Shown in pieces: positions 2,917 through 9,129 of a stretch of DNA of 64,000 bases (positions are counted from its first letter, which is position 1; each line of letters begins with the position of its first letter). The notes under the pieces were generated by a model that made no database searches, was not told the origin of the DNA, and worked only from the letters and a program-made list of their open reading frames with translations. The position numbers were made by a program, and so were the translations under genes. This DNA is from Candidatus Komeilibacteria bacterium CG11_big_fil_rev_8_21_14_0_20_36_20. GTDB taxonomy: Bacteria > Patescibacteriota > Patescibacteriia > UBA1558 > GWA2-36-10. The stretch spans positions 102,250 to 166,249 of the forward strand of contig PCWQ01000007.1 in assembly GCA_002787405.1 (NCBI GenBank), given 5' to 3'.

Positions 2917-4104
2917 TTATTTAATAATCTTAGTGACTACACCAGCGCCGACTGTACGACCGCCTTCGCGAATAGCAAATCTTGATTTTTCTTCTAAAGC
3001 TACCGGCACAATCAATTTAATCTTTAGATTAACCGTATCGCCAGGCATGATCATCTCTGTTCCTTCTGGTAATTCAATTTCGCCAGTTACATCAGTGGTT
3101 CTAATATAAAACTGTGGTTTATAACCTTTAAAGAATGGAGTATGTCGTCCGCCTTCCTCTTTACTTAAAATATATACTTCTGCTTCAAATTCGGTGTGAG
3201 GAGTAATAGTACCCGGTTTGGCTAAAACCTGACCGCGTTCCACATCGTCTTTTTTGGTACCTCTTAATAAAAGACCAGCATTATCACCAGCACGACCTTC
3301 GTCTAATTGTTTATTAAACATTTCAATGCCAGTGACGACGGTCTTAGTGGTATCCTTCAAACCAACCATTTCCACTTCTTCATTTAATTTAACAATACCT
3401 CTTTCAATACGACCGGTAACTACTGTGCCTCGGCCTTCAATGGAAAAGATATCCTCGATTGGCATTAAGAATGGCTGTTCAGTATCACGTTTTGGTTCTG
3501 GAATATATTCATCTAATGCCTTAATTAATTCATCAATTGGTTTGGCGTCATCGCCGGTTGGATTTTCCAAAGCTTTTAAAGCCGATCCTCTGATAATTGG
3601 CACTTCATCTCCCGGAAATTCATATTTCTTTAATAAGTCTCTGATTTCCTCTTCCACTAAATCAACTAATTCAGGATCGTCTACCTGATCCATTTTATTT
3701 AAGAAAACAATAAGATAAGGAACGCCAACTTGACGAGCCAATAAAATATGTTCTCTGGTCTGTGGCATTGGACCATCAGCGGCTGAAACGACTAAAATAG
3801 CGCCATCCATCTGGGCAGCACCAGTAATCATATTTTTAACATAGTCAGCGTGACCCGGACAGTCTACATGAGCGTAATGTCTTTTGTCGCTCTCATATTC
3901 CACATGAGCGGTAGCAATAGTAATGCCGCGCTCTCTTTCTTCTGGAGCATTATCAATCTGATCAACACCTTTTTGTTGAGCAATTTTTCCTTCAGCTACT
4001 AATACCTTTAAGATAGCCGCCGTCAAAGTGGTTTTGCCATGATCAACATGACCAATGGTTCCAACATTGATGTGAGGTTTTTCTCTTTTAAAAACTTCTG
4101 CCAT
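2917..4104 (-). CDS. tuf: Elongation factor Tu
   Basis: EF-Tu motifs [18 protein letters not shown] and NKMD. An AAGGAG Shine-Dalgarno sits 9 nt upstream of the ATG at 4104 ([11 protein letters not shown]). The longer ORF starting at 4134 ([10 protein letters not shown]) is not supported. Confidence 0.95.
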
Positions 4105-4291
4105 TTTTATGTTTCTCCTTTGATAGCGTCCCAATAAACAGGACTTTGTAACCCAACTATCGTGGTTTAATTATTTTTTATTAATCTTATAAAACACAAA
4201 GGATTATAGCATGGATTTATAATTTTGACAAGTATTTGTTAAGCTACTTATCAAATTAATTATATTTTAACTAATATTAGCCAAAATATTA

Positions 4292-4684
4292 TTAATCAAG
4301 CGGTTCAATATAATACTTATCATCTTCATCAACTGTGGCTGTATTAACATCAGCTTTCTTATCAGCTCCTAAATTATTTTCAGGAGCTTTATCTTTTACT
4401 TCTACTTTTTCTTTCTTCTTTAAACTTTCCACTTTAAAATCCTCTAAATCATATCCCTCCAGATCATTCTGGGAAGATTTCCAGATGGCAATGTCACGAT
4501 TAATCTTCTCCAATAATTGCTCTTCCGTTAAGTCATTAATTGGTGCAAAACCCTTTAGTAAGGCCTCATATTCCTTAAGTCCCATTAAAACATAAGGGTC
4601 GTGATTCTCAGAAACCACAATAACTTTATCATTGGTTTTAGAGACTAAGTCAAAGACTTGATCTAGCTTTTTGTAGTTAACCAT
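4292..4684 (-). CDS. Hypothetical acidic protein, weak Phd/YefM-antitoxin-like N-terminus
   Basis: 130-aa ORF. The N-terminus DKVIVVSENHDPYVLMGLKEYEALL resembles the Phd/YefM beta-strand/helix motif. The C-terminus is an acidic low-complexity tail. No toxin partner is adjacent. Confidence 0.45.
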   Translation of the reverse strand: MVNYKKLDQVFDLVSKTNDKVIVVSENHDPYVLMGLKEYEALLKGFAPINDLTEEQLLEKINRDIAIWKSSQNDLEGYDLEDFKVESLKKKEKVEVKDKAPENNLGADKKADVNTATVDEDDKYYIEPLD

Positions 4685-4826: not shown

Positions 4827-5351
4827 ATGAAAAAAATTATCATTGTTTTATCAGTTATGCTATTAATCAACAGTATAGCCATGGCGACAGATATACTTGT
4901 CACCCCAGAAAAATATGCTGAAATTCAAATTCCAACATCGATCACTACTTCAACCGTAATTCATTTTCAATACCAAAATTATAATTACGATGCTATCATT
5001 ATTCTATTTAATGATTGTCCGGATAACGATCTTTTCATCTTATACCAATTATATCCGAACAAAGAGGGCGAGAAGGGAGATTTTACTCGACTAAAAGCCA
5101 CAACTGAAAAAATAATACATTTGTGGCAAGGTAACACTAAAAAAACAGAAGCTGCAAAAGATCAAGATGATAGATTAGGGCAAAGAATTTCGCTATTATC
5201 TCCTAAATGGCCGGAGGAAAATCGCGACAAGTTAGATCAATTAATAGTTGATATGGCTAATTCGCAAGAATTTGAAAACATTTCCGTAAGTATTTTTTTC
5301 AAAAATCTGCCATTTTGGCTAGAAAAAGCCATACTGGCTAAATGCGAATAA
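4827..5351 (+). CDS. Secreted hypothetical protein
   Basis: 174-aa ORF with a strong RBS. The N-terminus MKKIIIVLSVMLLINSIAMA is a signal peptide. A weak hairpin plus T-run terminator follows at ~5358-5400. Confidence 0.6.
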   Translation: MKKIIIVLSVMLLINSIAMATDILVTPEKYAEIQIPTSITTSTVIHFQYQNYNYDAIIILFNDCPDNDLFILYQLYPNKEGEKGDFTRLKATTEKIIHLWQGNTKKTEAAKDQDDRLGQRISLLSPKWPEENRDKLDQLIVDMANSQEFENISVSIFFKNLPFWLEKAILAKCE

Positions 5352-5439
5352 AAAAAATTTAAGGGCCCTGGATAGACAATTTATCCGGGACCTTTTTCGT
5401 TTTTTAAAATGCCCTTTTAAATAAGGTTATTTATTCCCC

Positions 5440-5468
5440 TTGACAAGATTTTAAAAATATGCTATACT
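5440..5468 (+). promoter_or_regulatory. Promoter P1 of the orphan unit
   Basis: TTGACA (5440-5445), a 17-nt spacer, an extended TGc and TATACT (5463-5468). This is near-perfect sigma70 consensus. Confidence 0.65.
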
Positions 5469-5524
5469 TATTTATTAAATAAAAAACCAGCTAAACATTT
5501 ATATTCCAGATATCCCAAAAGCTC

Positions 5525-5553
5525 TTGACAAAACATTTAATATATGATATACT
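5525..5553 (+). promoter_or_regulatory. Promoter P2 of the orphan unit
   Basis: TTGACA (5525-5530), a 17-nt spacer, an extended TGa and TATACT (5548-5553). It is a second tandem consensus promoter 85 nt downstream of P1. Confidence 0.65.
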
Positions 5554-5632
5554 ACGATATTAAATGAAAAGCACCTAAAAACCCAGTTTAAACCCAGTTA
5601 ATTTATAAAGCGCTGATATGGAGGGGTAGAGA

Positions 5633-5698
5633 ATGAATTATAGAACTGATTGTATAGGGTCTTGGCTCTATGTTTTCAGGGAAATTAATTCAGTTTAA
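5633..5698 (+). CDS. 21-codon sORF (MNYRTDCIGSWLYVFREINSV) in the orphan transcript
   Basis: The ATG is preceded by GGAGGGG at 7-8 nt spacing and the stop is TAA. Translation is unproven. Confidence 0.25.
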   Translation: MNYRTDCIGSWLYVFREINSV

Positions 5699-5757
5699 TA
5701 ATTCGCTTAGCGAATAAAGTTAAACAACTCGCCTCCAGATCAGTCCTTTGTAAAGGA

Positions 5758-5872
5758 AAAATTTGGCAATGGCAGCCCTGAGAGGGGACAAGGCTGTGTC
5801 AAAGGCCTGCGAAGGAACCTTTGTCATGGATCTCTAGCGATCCATAGCGGGGCAGATCCGCTCATTGCCAAC
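5758..5872 (+). ncRNA. Candidate structured ncRNA domain of unknown class
   Basis: A 9-bp closing helix (TTGGCAATG...CATTGCCAA) encloses four consecutive hairpins: CAGCC/GGCTG; CAAAGG/CCTTTG with a 12-nt loop containing GAAGGAA; ATGGATC/GATCCAT; and AGCGG/CCGCT. A further perfect 10-bp hairpin lies at 5948-5969. Two consensus promoters lie upstream and a terminator downstream. No ORF of 60 aa or more exists on either strand across 5352-6100. Confidence 0.45.
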
Positions 5873-6020
5873 GAATTTTCGGGGGGTTTTATATAAATTA
5901 TATTTTCATATAAAGTTACTTTATAAAAGATTTTATATAAATCCTACAGCATGAGTACATACTCATGCTCCTATCCGAGTTTATTAACTGATGTTAATAA
6001 ATTCAGCTGGGATAAACCAA

Positions 6021-6048
6021 AAAGCTGCTTCCTCTGAAGCAGTTTTTT
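6021..6048. terminator. Bidirectional intrinsic terminator for the orphan + strand unit and minus-strand fusA
   Basis: Stem GCTGCTTC, loop ctct, stem GAAGCAG. It is flanked by AAA on the 5' side and TTTTTT on the 3' side. Confidence 0.7.
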
Positions 6049-6101
6049 GGTTATCTAAATCCCTTCTCACTCCCCCTTGACAGGGGGAGAAAAAATGGAA
6101 A

Positions 6102-8198
6102 TTAATTTTTCTTAATAATTTCTTCAGCAATATTTTTCGGTACCTCCTGATAGCGACTGAACTCCATGCTATAACTGGCCCTGCCTTGCGTCATTGAACG
6201 TAAAGCAGTGGCATAACCAAACATCTCTGACAATGGCACATCAGCATGAATAACTTTAACCCCAGCCCGATCAGTCATTTCAGAAACCTGTCCCCTCTTG
6301 GAATTCAAATCACCAATGACGTCACCCATATATTGTTCCGGGGTCACTGCCTCTATAGACATAATCGGTTCTAAAATAACTGGCTGAGCTCTTCTAAAGG
6401 CCTCTTTAAAAGCCATGGAGCCAGCTACTTTAAAGGCGGCTTCCGAAGAATCAACATCATGATAAGAACCGTCATAGACTATTGCCTTAACATCCTCTAT
6501 TTTATAGCCGGCTAAAACACCATTATCTAGCGTTTCTTTAACGCCTTTTTCAATAGCTGGAATATATTCTTTGGGAATAATACCACCTTTAATTTCATCA
6601 CTAAACTCAAAACCTGTGCCTCTGACTAAGGGTTCAACACGCAGCCAACAATGACCGTATTGTCCCCGACCACCTGATTGCTTGATATATTTTCCTTCAG
6701 CTTCCGCAATAGCAGTAATAGTTTCTTTATAAGCCACCTGAGGAGCGCCGACATTAGCTTCCACTGAGAACTCACGTTTCATGCGATCAACAATAATATC
6801 CAAATGCAACTCGCCCATACCGCCAATAATTATCTGGTTAGTTTCTTCATCGCTACGCACCGTAAAGGTAGGATCTTCTTCTGTTAATTTAGACAAAGCC
6901 ATGCCCATTTTTTCCTGATCAGCTTTAGTCTTTGGCTCTACGGCTACAAAAATAACTGGTTCTGGAAACTGCATGCTTTCCAAAACTACCTGATCTTCAC
7001 TAGCCGCTAAAGTGTGCCCCGTGCTGGTATCTTTAAGACCAACTACAGCCACAATGTCTCCAGTATTGATTTCCTCAACTTCTTCCCGAGCGTTAGCGTG
7101 CATCCGCAAAATACGACCGATTCTTTCTCTTTTATCCTTATTAACATTATAAACATAAGAACCAGATTTCAAAATGCCGGAATAAACTCTAATAAAAGTC
7201 AACTTACCAACATAAGGATCGCTAGCCACTTTAAAAGCCAAAGCTGTGAATGGTTCATTATCATCCGGCTTAACAATAACTTTAGTTTCCTCATCATCCG
7301 GCTTGGTTCCTTCCATAGCCGGCACATCTAAAGGCGATGGCAAATAAGCAGTAATAGCGTCTAACAAAAACTGCACCCCTTTATTTTTTAAAGCGGAACC
7401 ACAAAATACTGGCACAATTTTATTATGAATAACGGCCTGACGCAAAACTTTTTTCAAATCAATAATATCTGGTTCTTCACCATTTAGATATTTCTCCATC
7501 AAAATTTCATCATGCTCAACAATAGCTTCGATCAACTTACCGCGATATTCCTCTACTTTATCTTTTAGATCATCTGGAATATCTCTTTTCTCAAATTGCT
7601 TACCTTCTTCATCCAAATAATACCAAGCTTCTCTCTCTAATAAATTAATAATACCCGCAAAGGTTTCGGCTGCACCAATCGGCAATTGCATCGGATGAGC
7701 GTTTTTGGTCAATCTTTCATCAATAGTTTTTAAATCAAAATAAAAATCAGCACCCATGCGATCCATCTTGTTAACAAAAGCCAAACGCGGCACTTTGTAT
7801 TTATCAGCTTGCCGCCAAACTGTTTCTGATTGCGGCTCAACACCAGCCACACCATCAAAAACAATGACTCCGCCGTCCAAAACACGCAATGAACGCTCTA
7901 CTTCTACAGTAAAGTCAACATGACCGGGAGTATCAATAATATTAATGTTAGCATTTTCACCGGCCAACCAATCTGGTAAAGGCCAAAAACAAGTAGTGGC
8001 CGCTGAAGTAATAGTAATACCTCTTTCTTTCTCTTGAACCATCCAATCCATTTCGGCCTGTCCTTCGTGAACTTCACCAATTTTATGTTTTTTACCAGTA
8101 TAAAAAAGAATTCGCTCGGTTACGGTAGTTTTCCCTGCATCAATATGAGCGATGATTCCAATATTTCTAATTCTTTCTAAAGGATACTGTCTCCCCAT
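6102..8198 (-). CDS. fusA: Elongation factor G
   Basis: 698 aa with an [10 protein letters not shown]-domain and the full EF-G domain set. Confidence 0.95.
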
Positions 8199-8227: not shown

Positions 8228-8692
8228 TTAAGCAAAATGAGCAAAAGCTTTATTAGATTCTGCCATTCTTTGAATATCTTCTCTCTTCTTCATAGCTTCA
8301 CCTTCACCTTTGGCGGCAGCAATTAATTCCTCACCTAAACGCGCACTCATAGCTGCACCTTTTCGGGATTGAGCGGCCTTAATAAGCCAACGATGAGCTA
8401 AAGTTAATTTTCTGTCTCCAATCACTACAATCGGCACCTGATAATTAGAGCCGCCGATTCTCTTACCTTTAACTTCCAAATTTGGAGAAACATTACGCAT
8501 AGCGGCGTCGTAAATACTAATGGGGTCCTGTTTGGTTTTATTAGAAATATATTCAAAAGCATTATAGACAATACTTTGAGCCACCGTTTTTTTGCCTCGA
8601 CGCATAATCTTATTGATAAATTTAGCAATATCAACCCGATTAAATTTAGGGTCTGGGGTCACTTGTCTTTTTGTAACTGGTTTACCTCTCAT
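8228..8692 (-). CDS. rpsG: 30S ribosomal protein S7
   Basis: 154 aa; contains the S7 motif NAMRNVSPNLEVKGKRIGG. Confidence 0.95.
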   Translation of the reverse strand: MRGKPVTKRQVTPDPKFNRVDIAKFINKIMRRGKKTVAQSIVYNAFEYISNKTKQDPISIYDAAMRNVSPNLEVKGKRIGGSNYQVPIVVIGDRKLTLAHRWLIKAAQSRKGAAMSARLGEELIAAAKGEGEAMKKREDIQRMAESNKAFAHFA

Positions 8693-8700
8693 ATTTAAAA

Positions 8701-9129
8701 TTATTTACTAGCTTTCTTTTCTCTTTTAGTGCCATATAAAGAGCGCCCTTGTTTGCGACTAGATACACCTTGAGTGTCATAAACACCGCGCACAATATGA
8801 TAACGGACACCCGGGAGATCCTTTACTCTGCCTCCGCGAATCAAAACAATGCTATGTTCCTGCAAATTATGCCCCTCCCCTGGAATATAAGCCGTTACTT
8901 CCATACCATTAGAAAGACGCACTCTGGCAATTTTACGCAAAGCAGAGTTCGGTTTTTTAGGAGTAGCAGTAGTCACTTTTAAACAAACACCTCTTTTAAA
9001 AGGAGCTCCTTTCGGCAGGTCTCTCTTCCTTCTCCTCAAATTATTCAAAACCGTCTTTAAGGCAGGCGTACTGCTTTTAGCTTTTGGTTTTTTTCTTGCT
9101 TTTCTTAATAATTGGTTAACTGTTGGCAT
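8701..9129 (-). CDS. rpsL: 30S ribosomal protein S12
   Basis: S12 motifs: [13 protein letters not shown] and [10 protein letters not shown]. Confidence 0.95.

Follow-up and report, generated by a model that had tools for sequence, protein, structure and literature searches.

The DNA considered here comes from a metagenome-assembled genome of Candidatus Komeilibacteria (Patescibacteria), bacterium CG11_big_fil_rev_8_21_14_0_20_36_20, assembly GCA_002787405.1, contig PCWQ01000007.1, positions 102,250 to 166,249 of the forward strand. We will refer to this whole stretch of 64,000 nucleotides (nt) as the window, and coordinates are counted from its first letter. On its − strand lie rpsL (8701-9129), rpsG (8228-8692), fusA (6102-8198), tuf (2917-4134) and rpsJ, together with a Phd/YefM-like gene of 130 amino acids (aa; 4292-4684, − strand) situated between fusA and tuf. 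The gap between this Phd-like gene and fusA harbors, on the + strand, a strongly promoted and highly structured RNA unit, whose 5' part is a four-helix domain of ~160 nt (5598-5760, + strand), hereafter “Motif 1”. The base pairs of this domain covary among related genomes, and it has no counterpart in Rfam.

The unit opens with two tandem promoters carrying an extended −10 element, TTGACA-17-TGcTATACT at 5440-5468 and TTGACA-17-TGaTATACT at 5525-5553, both on the + strand, each with 11/12 matches and with predicted starts at ~5476 and ~5561, respectively. The pattern TTGACA-N14-TGN-TATAMT occurs exactly twice in the 64 kb, at these two sites, and in none of 100 shuffles. Both promoters are copies of an 85-nt tandem duplication (47 nt, 77% identical), the downstream one being the counterpart of the single promoter of the relatives, and TTGACA-17-TGnTATA(A/C)T lies upstream of Motif 1 in 16/17 homologous units. 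The 5' leader (5561-5602, + strand) contains the direct repeat AAACCCAGTT twice at 5579-5599; the leader of the relatives is A-rich at the matching position (AUUACAAUAAAGAACYUUAAA). At the other end, an intrinsic terminator shared with fusA (6015-6052; core stem 6025-6031/6036-6042) has U runs on both strands: the program listed the − strand only, and the UUUUUU of the + strand (6043-6048) was read directly from the sequence. No open reading frame (ORF) of at least 60 aa exists on either strand of the 750-nt gene-free stretch (5352-6101) that separates fusA from a 174-aa ORF, the longest being a 48-aa frame of the − strand that reaches into the end of fusA. The + strand of 5560-6050 folds with −175.4 kcal/mol (z = −9.66) and the − strand with −153 kcal/mol (z = −8.64). 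A self-BLAST found no second copy of 5400-6100 within the window. An earlier reading of the locus from its letters (the sequence-only reading) had described two near-perfect promoters, a bidirectional terminator, the lack of any ORF of 60 aa or more, and a five-helix junction and a perfect 10-base-pair (bp) hairpin, both of which are present in the minimum-energy fold; its general picture of a strongly promoted, highly structured + strand unit devoid of a convincing protein is borne out by the promoters, the ORF scan and the fold.

The same reading regarded the unit as an orphan interrupting a universal rpsL-rpsG-fusA-tuf order, and on both counts it has to be revised. Nineteen distinct copies exist including that of the window, hence 18 others, all of them in Komeilibacteria-like genomes with EF-G 82-86% identical. 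In all loci with enough context, the unit lies between the 3' end of fusA and the Phd-like gene or tuf, divergent from the Phd-like gene and antisense to fusA. Moreover, a Phd/YefM-like gene already separates fusA from tuf in several other Patescibacteria, and in its clade the unit is constantly present in that gap. The common element was first recognized by reading the relatives, which share the same kind of promoter, an A-rich leader and a long helix ending in UGGAG(G)/(C)CUCCA around conserved hairpins; an alignment of three sequences already contained 18 compensatory pairs. A pattern taken from the most conserved part (hairpin P3 and its flanks) retrieved 30 metagenome loci, at least 12 of which are true copies, the remainder being chance matches. 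Seventeen distinct sequences, the window among them, form alignment A2, on which the covariance model R1 (159 positions, 50 pairs) was built. R1 scores 107-161 bits on the sense strand of all copies vs 21-36 bits on the opposite one, and each locus has a single copy; R1 also found an untrained copy in Komeilibacteria RIFOXYC1_FULL_37_11 (L129/L130) at 121-122 bits. The window copy, itself a training sequence of R1, is matched over model positions 1-159 at 106.8 bits (E = 7e-24; opposite strand 28 bits), and is thus a full-length sense-strand match in the fusA/phd-tuf gap, as family membership was defined; it is the most divergent member, and keeps 42/50 consensus pairs.

Outside this group the unit disappears. 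Komeilibacteria whose EF-G is 74-75% identical do not have it, and in them 10 nt separate fusA from the Phd-like gene; R1 gave no significant match in 23 other Patescibacteria-type loci searched; and neither blastn nor nhmmer detected anything similar around the fusA genes of 80 species representatives of GTDB, whose EF-G is at best 74% identical. Two patterns searched in IMG/VR returned chance matches only, in coding DNA or at 11-25 bits, and blastn against the INPHARED phages gave no match. The non-coding stretch is 100% identical in five same-species contigs, which are hence uninformative on variation. The unit is vertically inherited, clade-specific and built of RNA modules, and is of recent origin within Komeilibacteria.

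For the 17 sequences of Motif 1, RNAalifold predicts a consensus of 50 pairs, 31/50 of which are changed on both sides. In A2, 94.2% of the cells are paired vs 34-48% with slid partners, and the doubly changed pairs number 31 vs 6-11 in the slid controls; none of 500 shuffles reaches the observed values. The layout is a closing stem, P1-P1b, followed by two arms, P2-P3 and P4. P1 (5603-5624/5732-5753, ending UGGAGG/CCUCCA in the window) is ~20 bp long and 95% paired, with 13/20 pairs covarying and an invariant inner end UGGAG/CUCCA, and it is continued by P1b (5629-5631/5728-5730, GAG/CUC). Within the first arm, P2 (5634-5640/5686-5692; 6/7 pairs covarying) encloses an internal loop whose invariant GAUU and UUUCA strands (in the window GAUU at 5648-5651 and UUUCAG at 5674-5679) surround hairpin P3 (5653-5660/5665-5672). 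The latter is nearly invariant (UAUWGGG...CUCAAUA), with a G.U pair in 17/17 sequences. The second arm, P4 (5693-5706/5710-5725), covaries at 9/10 pairs, and has an A-rich bulge and loops of the UUCG type. Inspection by eye of the P3 internal loop ruled out a K-turn, the 3' strand carrying AG and not GA. Judged from the aligned sequences, these compensatory changes show that Motif 1 is a real structured RNA domain of the + strand; the sequence-only reading had noticed 5598-5760 only as the region of a small ORF. As a side observation on P1, the copies at L111 11713-11871 and L121 240-398 have an identical inner Motif 1 core, while the outer ~15 bp of P1 are wholly different on both strands with complementarity kept; the outer helix of L121 is of the type found in L086 and L129. 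This swap suggests gene conversion or modular exchange between genomes.

A second conserved module lies near the 3' end of the unit. The perfect 10-bp hairpin mentioned above (5948-5957/5960-5969, + strand) is the positional equivalent of a GC-rich hairpin, Hx, the equivalence being drawn from position alone in the alignment of 3' modules. It is followed by the conserved hairpin H2 (5970-6011, + strand), with consensus CCCUCCYRAGUYUA...UARAUUYRGGAGGG, in which the GGAGG/CCUCC ends are substituted in the window by CCUAUCC/GCUGGGA; nhmmer independently links this region of the window to L093 and L109. Besides the window, H2 is preceded by Hx in L086, L088, L091, L093, L094, L104, L109 and L111. 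In the nine-sequence alignment A4, 93.5% of the H2 cells are paired vs 35-52% in slid controls, and 7/17 pairs are changed on both sides. In the window, L109, L088 and L091, the parts form a discrete gene of ~330-570 nt with the order promoter, Motif 1, slot, Hx, H2 and terminator.

The slot between both modules behaves otherwise. When L088 and L091 are compared, Motif 1 is 72-92% and H2 85-90% identical, whereas the middle is 52-57% identical, and only 7-50% with respect to L109; with flanks conserved and the middle poorly so, the content of the slot has been replaced rather than having slowly diverged. Most relatives have an ORF, equipped with a Shine-Dalgarno sequence, ~30-100 nt past P1, or past an intervening tRNA-like structure or H2. 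Hydrophobic ORFs of 42-55 aa directly follow Motif 1 in L088, L091 and L112, and follow H2 in L094. A family of ~30-aa proteins occurs in eight units (e.g., MKGFINFVRMLICDFEFLSDQDKRDMCIRT); its members (MK.FI..LRMLI.DF.FLS..DKRDM.I, with variants ending in QQEMGIKI) each have a good Shine-Dalgarno sequence, are located downstream of Motif 1 in L093 (7875-7967, − strand), L094, L086, L104, L110, L111, L112 and L122, and are missing from the window. Further slot or cargo proteins of the relatives measure 55, 70, 136 and 150-220 aa, and ten cargo proteins compared with Pfam and PHROGs gave nothing above threshold. The slot of L109 is empty. That of the window contains an AT-rich imperfect hairpin (5885-5944, + strand; 29-nt arms, 72% complementary), which is window-specific and for which a homologue was not found. 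The window middle (5741-5965), compared with all units by blastn, nhmmer, tblastx and local alignment, matched only the H2 region and, weakly, L115. The proposal that 5855-5895 is a decayed version of the L115 tRNA-like structure (16/19 nt identical, by eye) could not be substantiated.

Directly downstream of Motif 1 lies the five-helix junction (5763-5871, + strand), a closing helix (5763-5771/5863-5871) around four hairpins. The sequence-only reading had given it prominence and proposed that its helices be checked by covariation in homologous spacers; such changes support Motif 1 but not the junction. It is present in the overall fold, yet it is among the least supported features of the unit: folded on its own its stability is modest (z = −2.46; 5/200 shuffles as stable), and it has neither a homologue by sequence nor any covariation, the latter because no second copy exists and the five same-species contigs are identical. 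A 24-codon ORF starting with TTG overlaps it (5763-5837, + strand). On the other hand, its geometry is that of a tRNA end: a geometric scan found in it a 7-bp acceptor-like helix (5765-5771/5863-5869, GGCAAUG/CAUUGCC) coaxial with an abutting T-arm-like hairpin (5846-5862, AGCGG-GGCAGAU-CCGCU) of 5 bp and a 7-nt, non-canonical loop. This acceptor/T-arm geometry occurs 10 times in 31.6 kb of units vs 2.3 in shuffles, and 4/10 occurrences are just after Motif 1. In four relatives, the first structure after Motif 1 is tRNA-like, with a 7-bp acceptor and a T arm with the canonical UUCRANY loop (L110 1233-1323, + strand; L122 2041-2130, − strand; L104 989-1079, + strand; L115 8230-8297, − strand). 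That of L110 ends in ACCA, and in three of the four the anticodon-like loops read GAU, UAU and AAU, all of them isoleucine anticodons. Neither ARAGORN nor Rfam matches these four structures to a tRNA. R2, a model trained on three of these structures, recovers the remaining one at E = 0.0014, and the scores are 26-108 bits for L115, L104, L122 and L110. On the window junction R2 gives 8.4 bits (E = 0.08), which is still its best match in 5400-6100, and the UUCRANY loop with D and anticodon arms of a tRNA is not found in this junction, the loop being GGCAGAU. The window junction is thus tRNA-shaped and only possibly homologous to the tRNA-like structures of the relatives.

The unit was compared with known RNA classes using Rfam release 15 (4227 families), a match being accepted at the gathering threshold of the family. 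At this threshold there are zero matches in the 64-kb window (no ribosomal-protein leaders, riboswitches, etc.); at E ≤ 10, region 5300-6150 yields weak sub-threshold matches only, none of them to a housekeeping RNA. Motif 1 of L086, L088, L091-L094, L104, L109, L110, L115 and L122 yielded nothing either (seven loci at E ≤ 0.1 to 1). ARAGORN recognized no tRNA or tmRNA in the window or in 18 homologous loci, and Rfam gave no tmRNA match either, a tmRNA being defined by a tag reading frame and a tRNA-like domain built from its 5' and 3' ends; the 64-kb window contains no tRNA genes. A word search of the literature, restricted to open-access papers, found no description of the element. The earlier statement that the unit belongs to no curated RNA family accordingly stands; its suggestion of a 6S-like RNA is not supported. 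The unit resembles 6S RNA in its strong promoter, its abundant-RNA-like gene and its long terminal helix, but Motif 1 is branched, with two arms inside P1-P1b, whereas 6S RNA is a single rod with a central bubble mimicking an open promoter; Rfam reports no 6S match, and the unit is absent from close relatives.

Other systems offer partial likenesses. Weinberg and coworkers reportedly described, in 2017, candidate orphan structured RNA motifs found by comparative genomics. Like such motifs and 5' leaders, Motif 1 lies between genes, measures ~160 nt, shows many compensatory base-pair changes and highly conserved internal-loop nucleotides, usually precedes an ORF closely and is confined to a single lineage. 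Unlike them, it has an unusually long closing helix (~20 bp), an expression platform was not found, the strong promoter is kept where no ORF follows, and the domain is paired with a second hairpin around a hypervariable slot. Modules of tRNA-like processing or mimicry are also known, such as mascRNA downstream of MALAT1, the bacterial YrlA Y RNAs and the tRNA-like domain of tmRNA. The 7-bp acceptor and canonical T arm directly 3' of Motif 1 in four relatives recall them, and the window junction has the same geometry and place; however, ARAGORN and Rfam give no match to tRNA, tmRNA or YrlA, the window junction has three large hairpins in place of the D, anticodon and variable arms, and none of the loci read has an evident Ro60 (Rsr) gene. 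Finally, type I toxin mRNAs (e.g., hok, aapA1) are strongly structured. The unit shares with them a structured transcript, Shine-Dalgarno-like/anti-Shine-Dalgarno-like helices and, in some relatives, small hydrophobic ORFs, but the window unit has no such ORF, an antisense RNA was not identified and the cargo is mostly of other kinds.

The gap itself deserves some description. The Phd/YefM-antitoxin match of the window gene at 4292-4684 is weak and sub-threshold (E = 1.4e-4). Phd-like genes of 120-150 aa are found between fusA and tuf in the window, L001, L003, L005, L006, L009, L010 and L126, that is, in several Patescibacteria lineages, so that the str-operon order there is rpsL-rpsG-fusA-X-tuf. 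The spacing from fusA to the Phd-like gene is ~60-100 nt in the closest GTDB representatives having that order, and the window thus holds ~1.3 kb of extra DNA in the gap. Among the metagenomic relatives whose EF-G is 84-86% identical, the insertion at this place differs from one to the next. The gap is a hot spot in L086, L088, L091, L093, L094, L109-L112, L115 and L129, with cargo from 0.34 kb (window) up to ~4 kb (L115). This cargo comprises recurrent protein families without an assigned role, of about 30, 55, 70, 136 and 150-160 aa, as well as a cytidine deaminase (L087/L088), and a 450-aa ORF of L115 may, by eye, resemble purine-synthesis enzymes. No recombinase or integrase was recognized among the called genes or scanned cargo proteins. 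Within the window, the 174-aa ORF (4827-5351, + strand), which encodes a protein with a signal peptide, has no Pfam match and possesses its own terminator (5367-5389), lies upstream of the RNA promoters and is part of the cargo gene pool of the fusA/tuf island. As a query this protein retrieved only itself from the databases (an ORFan); compared pairwise by BLASTP with the 184-aa cargo ORF downstream of Motif 1 in L115, it aligns at full length with 20% identity over 180 aa (E = 1e-7), and on this similarity the two are distantly related. Two further observations concern the immediate surroundings. A GC-rich hairpin, CTCCCCCT-TGAC-AGGGGGAG (6060-6099), is located right after the fusA stop codon and ahead of the shared terminator, and the decamer CCCCTTGACA recurs at the first of the two RNA promoters (5436-5445). 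Besides, the JGI gene tables list a 227-nt “gene” at L083 5803-6029 (window 5670-5896, + strand) and one of 535 nt at L093 7800-8334, exactly over the RNA unit, on inconsistent strands and with products of only 15 and 23 residues.

Regarding function, we tentatively favor a reading in which Motif 1 would serve the sequence downstream of it in cis, as a 5' leader or scaffold. The near-consensus promoter, duplicated in the window, would drive a predicted transcript opening with Motif 1, whose conserved internal loop may bind a protein or a small ligand; the long P1 and, where present, the tRNA-like element would act as processing or stability determinants, and expression of the slot content and of the downstream cargo would depend on all of these together. 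As no conserved ORF is left in the window copy, this unit would be made as a non-coding RNA of ~490-575 nt, a cargo-less yet intact copy. The leader role is supported by the ORF with Shine-Dalgarno sequence near downstream of the structured domain in most relatives, and the tRNA-like part by the position and geometry that the window junction shares with L110, L122, L104 and L115.

Several points weigh against the leader reading. In the 3' flanks of the 17 units, neither a terminator/anti-terminator nor an alternative pairing sequestering the Shine-Dalgarno sequence was found, and typical switching helices are much shorter and less stable than P1. The units of the window and L109 retain an intact promoter, Motif 1 and H2 with no conserved ORF behind them, and an RNA with a role of its own fits these copies at least equally well. 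The window junction is reached by R2 at only E = 0.08 and has no UUCRANY loop, and that RNase III and RNase P would process their candidate substrates, P1 and the tRNA-like elements, is pure conjecture. In addition, 13/19 sequences were obtained via the pattern spanning P3 and its flanks, so the invariance of the P3 columns is partly by construction; P1, P2 and P4, which hold most of the covariation, lie outside that pattern, and L086 and L129/L130, found independently of it, agree.

The main rival, somewhat unlikely in our estimate but the best placed of the alternatives, is a stand-alone gene for a stable non-coding RNA, a trans regulator or the RNA of a ribonucleoprotein, from which Motif 1 would be excised, the ORFs of the relatives being passengers on a strong promoter. 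It draws on the near-consensus extended −10 promoter, the sole kind in 64 kb and duplicated, on a ~20-bp closing helix typical of stable RNAs, on the single copy per locus and on the discrete promoter-to-terminator gene of the window, L109, L088 and L091, the first two lacking a plausible ORF; the tRNA-like elements 3' of Motif 1 could moreover be RNase P processing signals. Against it, the distribution is very narrow for a housekeeping RNA (absent at EF-G 74-75% identity and in the other Patescibacteria loci searched), an ORF follows closely in most homologues, and no partner protein or target was identified. A stand-alone RNA thus explains the ORF-less copies better, and the narrow distribution and usual downstream ORFs worse, than the leader reading.

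Two further explanations start from the turnover of the slot. The inverted repeats might be merely RNA-like, belonging to a DNA-level feature, namely a site of frequent recombination or integration that includes a tRNA-like attachment site. The cargo of the fusA-tuf gap does differ in almost every genome, tRNA-like sequences stand at its boundary, and the P1 swap between L111 and L121 suggests gene conversion; this explanation is nonetheless improbable, given that on the opposite strand the conserved G.U pairs would turn into A.C mismatches and R1 scores 4-5 times higher on the sense strand, that no integrase or recombinase was recognized in the genes and cargo scanned, and that a second copy of the canonical T arm was not found in the units. 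Still harder to credit is a type I toxin-antitoxin-like locus or its decaying remnant, in which the window would have lost a hydrophobic toxin and its RNA would be functionless. The hydrophobic ORFs after Motif 1 (L088, L091, L112) or H2 (L094), the heavy structure with its Shine-Dalgarno-like/anti-Shine-Dalgarno-like helices and the rapid turnover of the slot would suit it, but the cargo is mostly otherwise (~30-aa amphipathic, 55-, 70-, 136- and 150-220-aa proteins), no antisense promoter or antitoxin RNA was identified, and the 42/50 pairs kept, the intact H2 and the two perfect promoters of the window are contrary to what decay predicts.

The sequence-only reading had also raised the possibility of a dual-function small RNA encoding a micro-protein, which we regard as very improbable. 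The 21-codon ORF on which it relied, MNYRTDCIGSWLYVFREINSV (5633-5698, + strand), does exist inside Motif 1 with a GGAGG 8 nt upstream; it starts in the P2 region and runs through P1b, P2 and P3 into P4. However, the 16 aligned homologues all lack an ORF of similar length past the GGAGG, and this GGAGG, which pairs with CCUCC, makes up the 5' side of the invariant end of P1, UGGAG(G)/(C)CUCCA, and is at most a putative ribosome-binding site; the sequences of P1b, P2, P3 and P4 vary by compensation and not in a codon-like manner. From this comparison the 21-codon ORF is probably not a gene. Least likely of all is a divergent housekeeping RNA (6S, RNase P RNA, SRP RNA or tmRNA) missed by the models: RNAs of the Candidate Phyla Radiation (CPR) can be divergent, and the promoter and high structure would be in keeping, but Rfam and ARAGORN (window and 18 loci) found no such class, P1-P1b with two arms fits none of the four, and an essential RNA could not be missing, as this element is, from close relatives whose EF-G is 74-75% identical.

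In our best reading, Motif 1 is a new, lineage-restricted RNA family of a familiar general kind, either a structured leader or a non-coding RNA, with an unusual modular layout. A bolder view, which we consider rather unlikely, is that it represents a new functional RNA class (ligand- or protein-sensing, self-processing, or the RNA of a small ribonucleoprotein), which together with H2 and the tRNA-like modules would bound a cassette slot through which Komeilibacteria exchange small genes and RNA elements, the window then containing an RNA-only, tRNA-mimicking cassette. Patescibacteria (CPR) have tiny genomes and few described RNAs of their own, and their regulation is mostly uncharted. In this setting, a strongly promoted and covarying RNA domain without Rfam counterpart is fixed beside the elongation-factor genes, and brackets a fast-changing slot that can carry small proteins, tRNA look-alikes or nothing. 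Even the most conservative reading yields the covariance model R1 and 19 sequences, for experiments and for the annotation of these genomes; and should Motif 1 prove to be a sensor or a processing scaffold, it would offer one of the earliest ways into the gene regulation of Patescibacteria and the turnover of their small genes.

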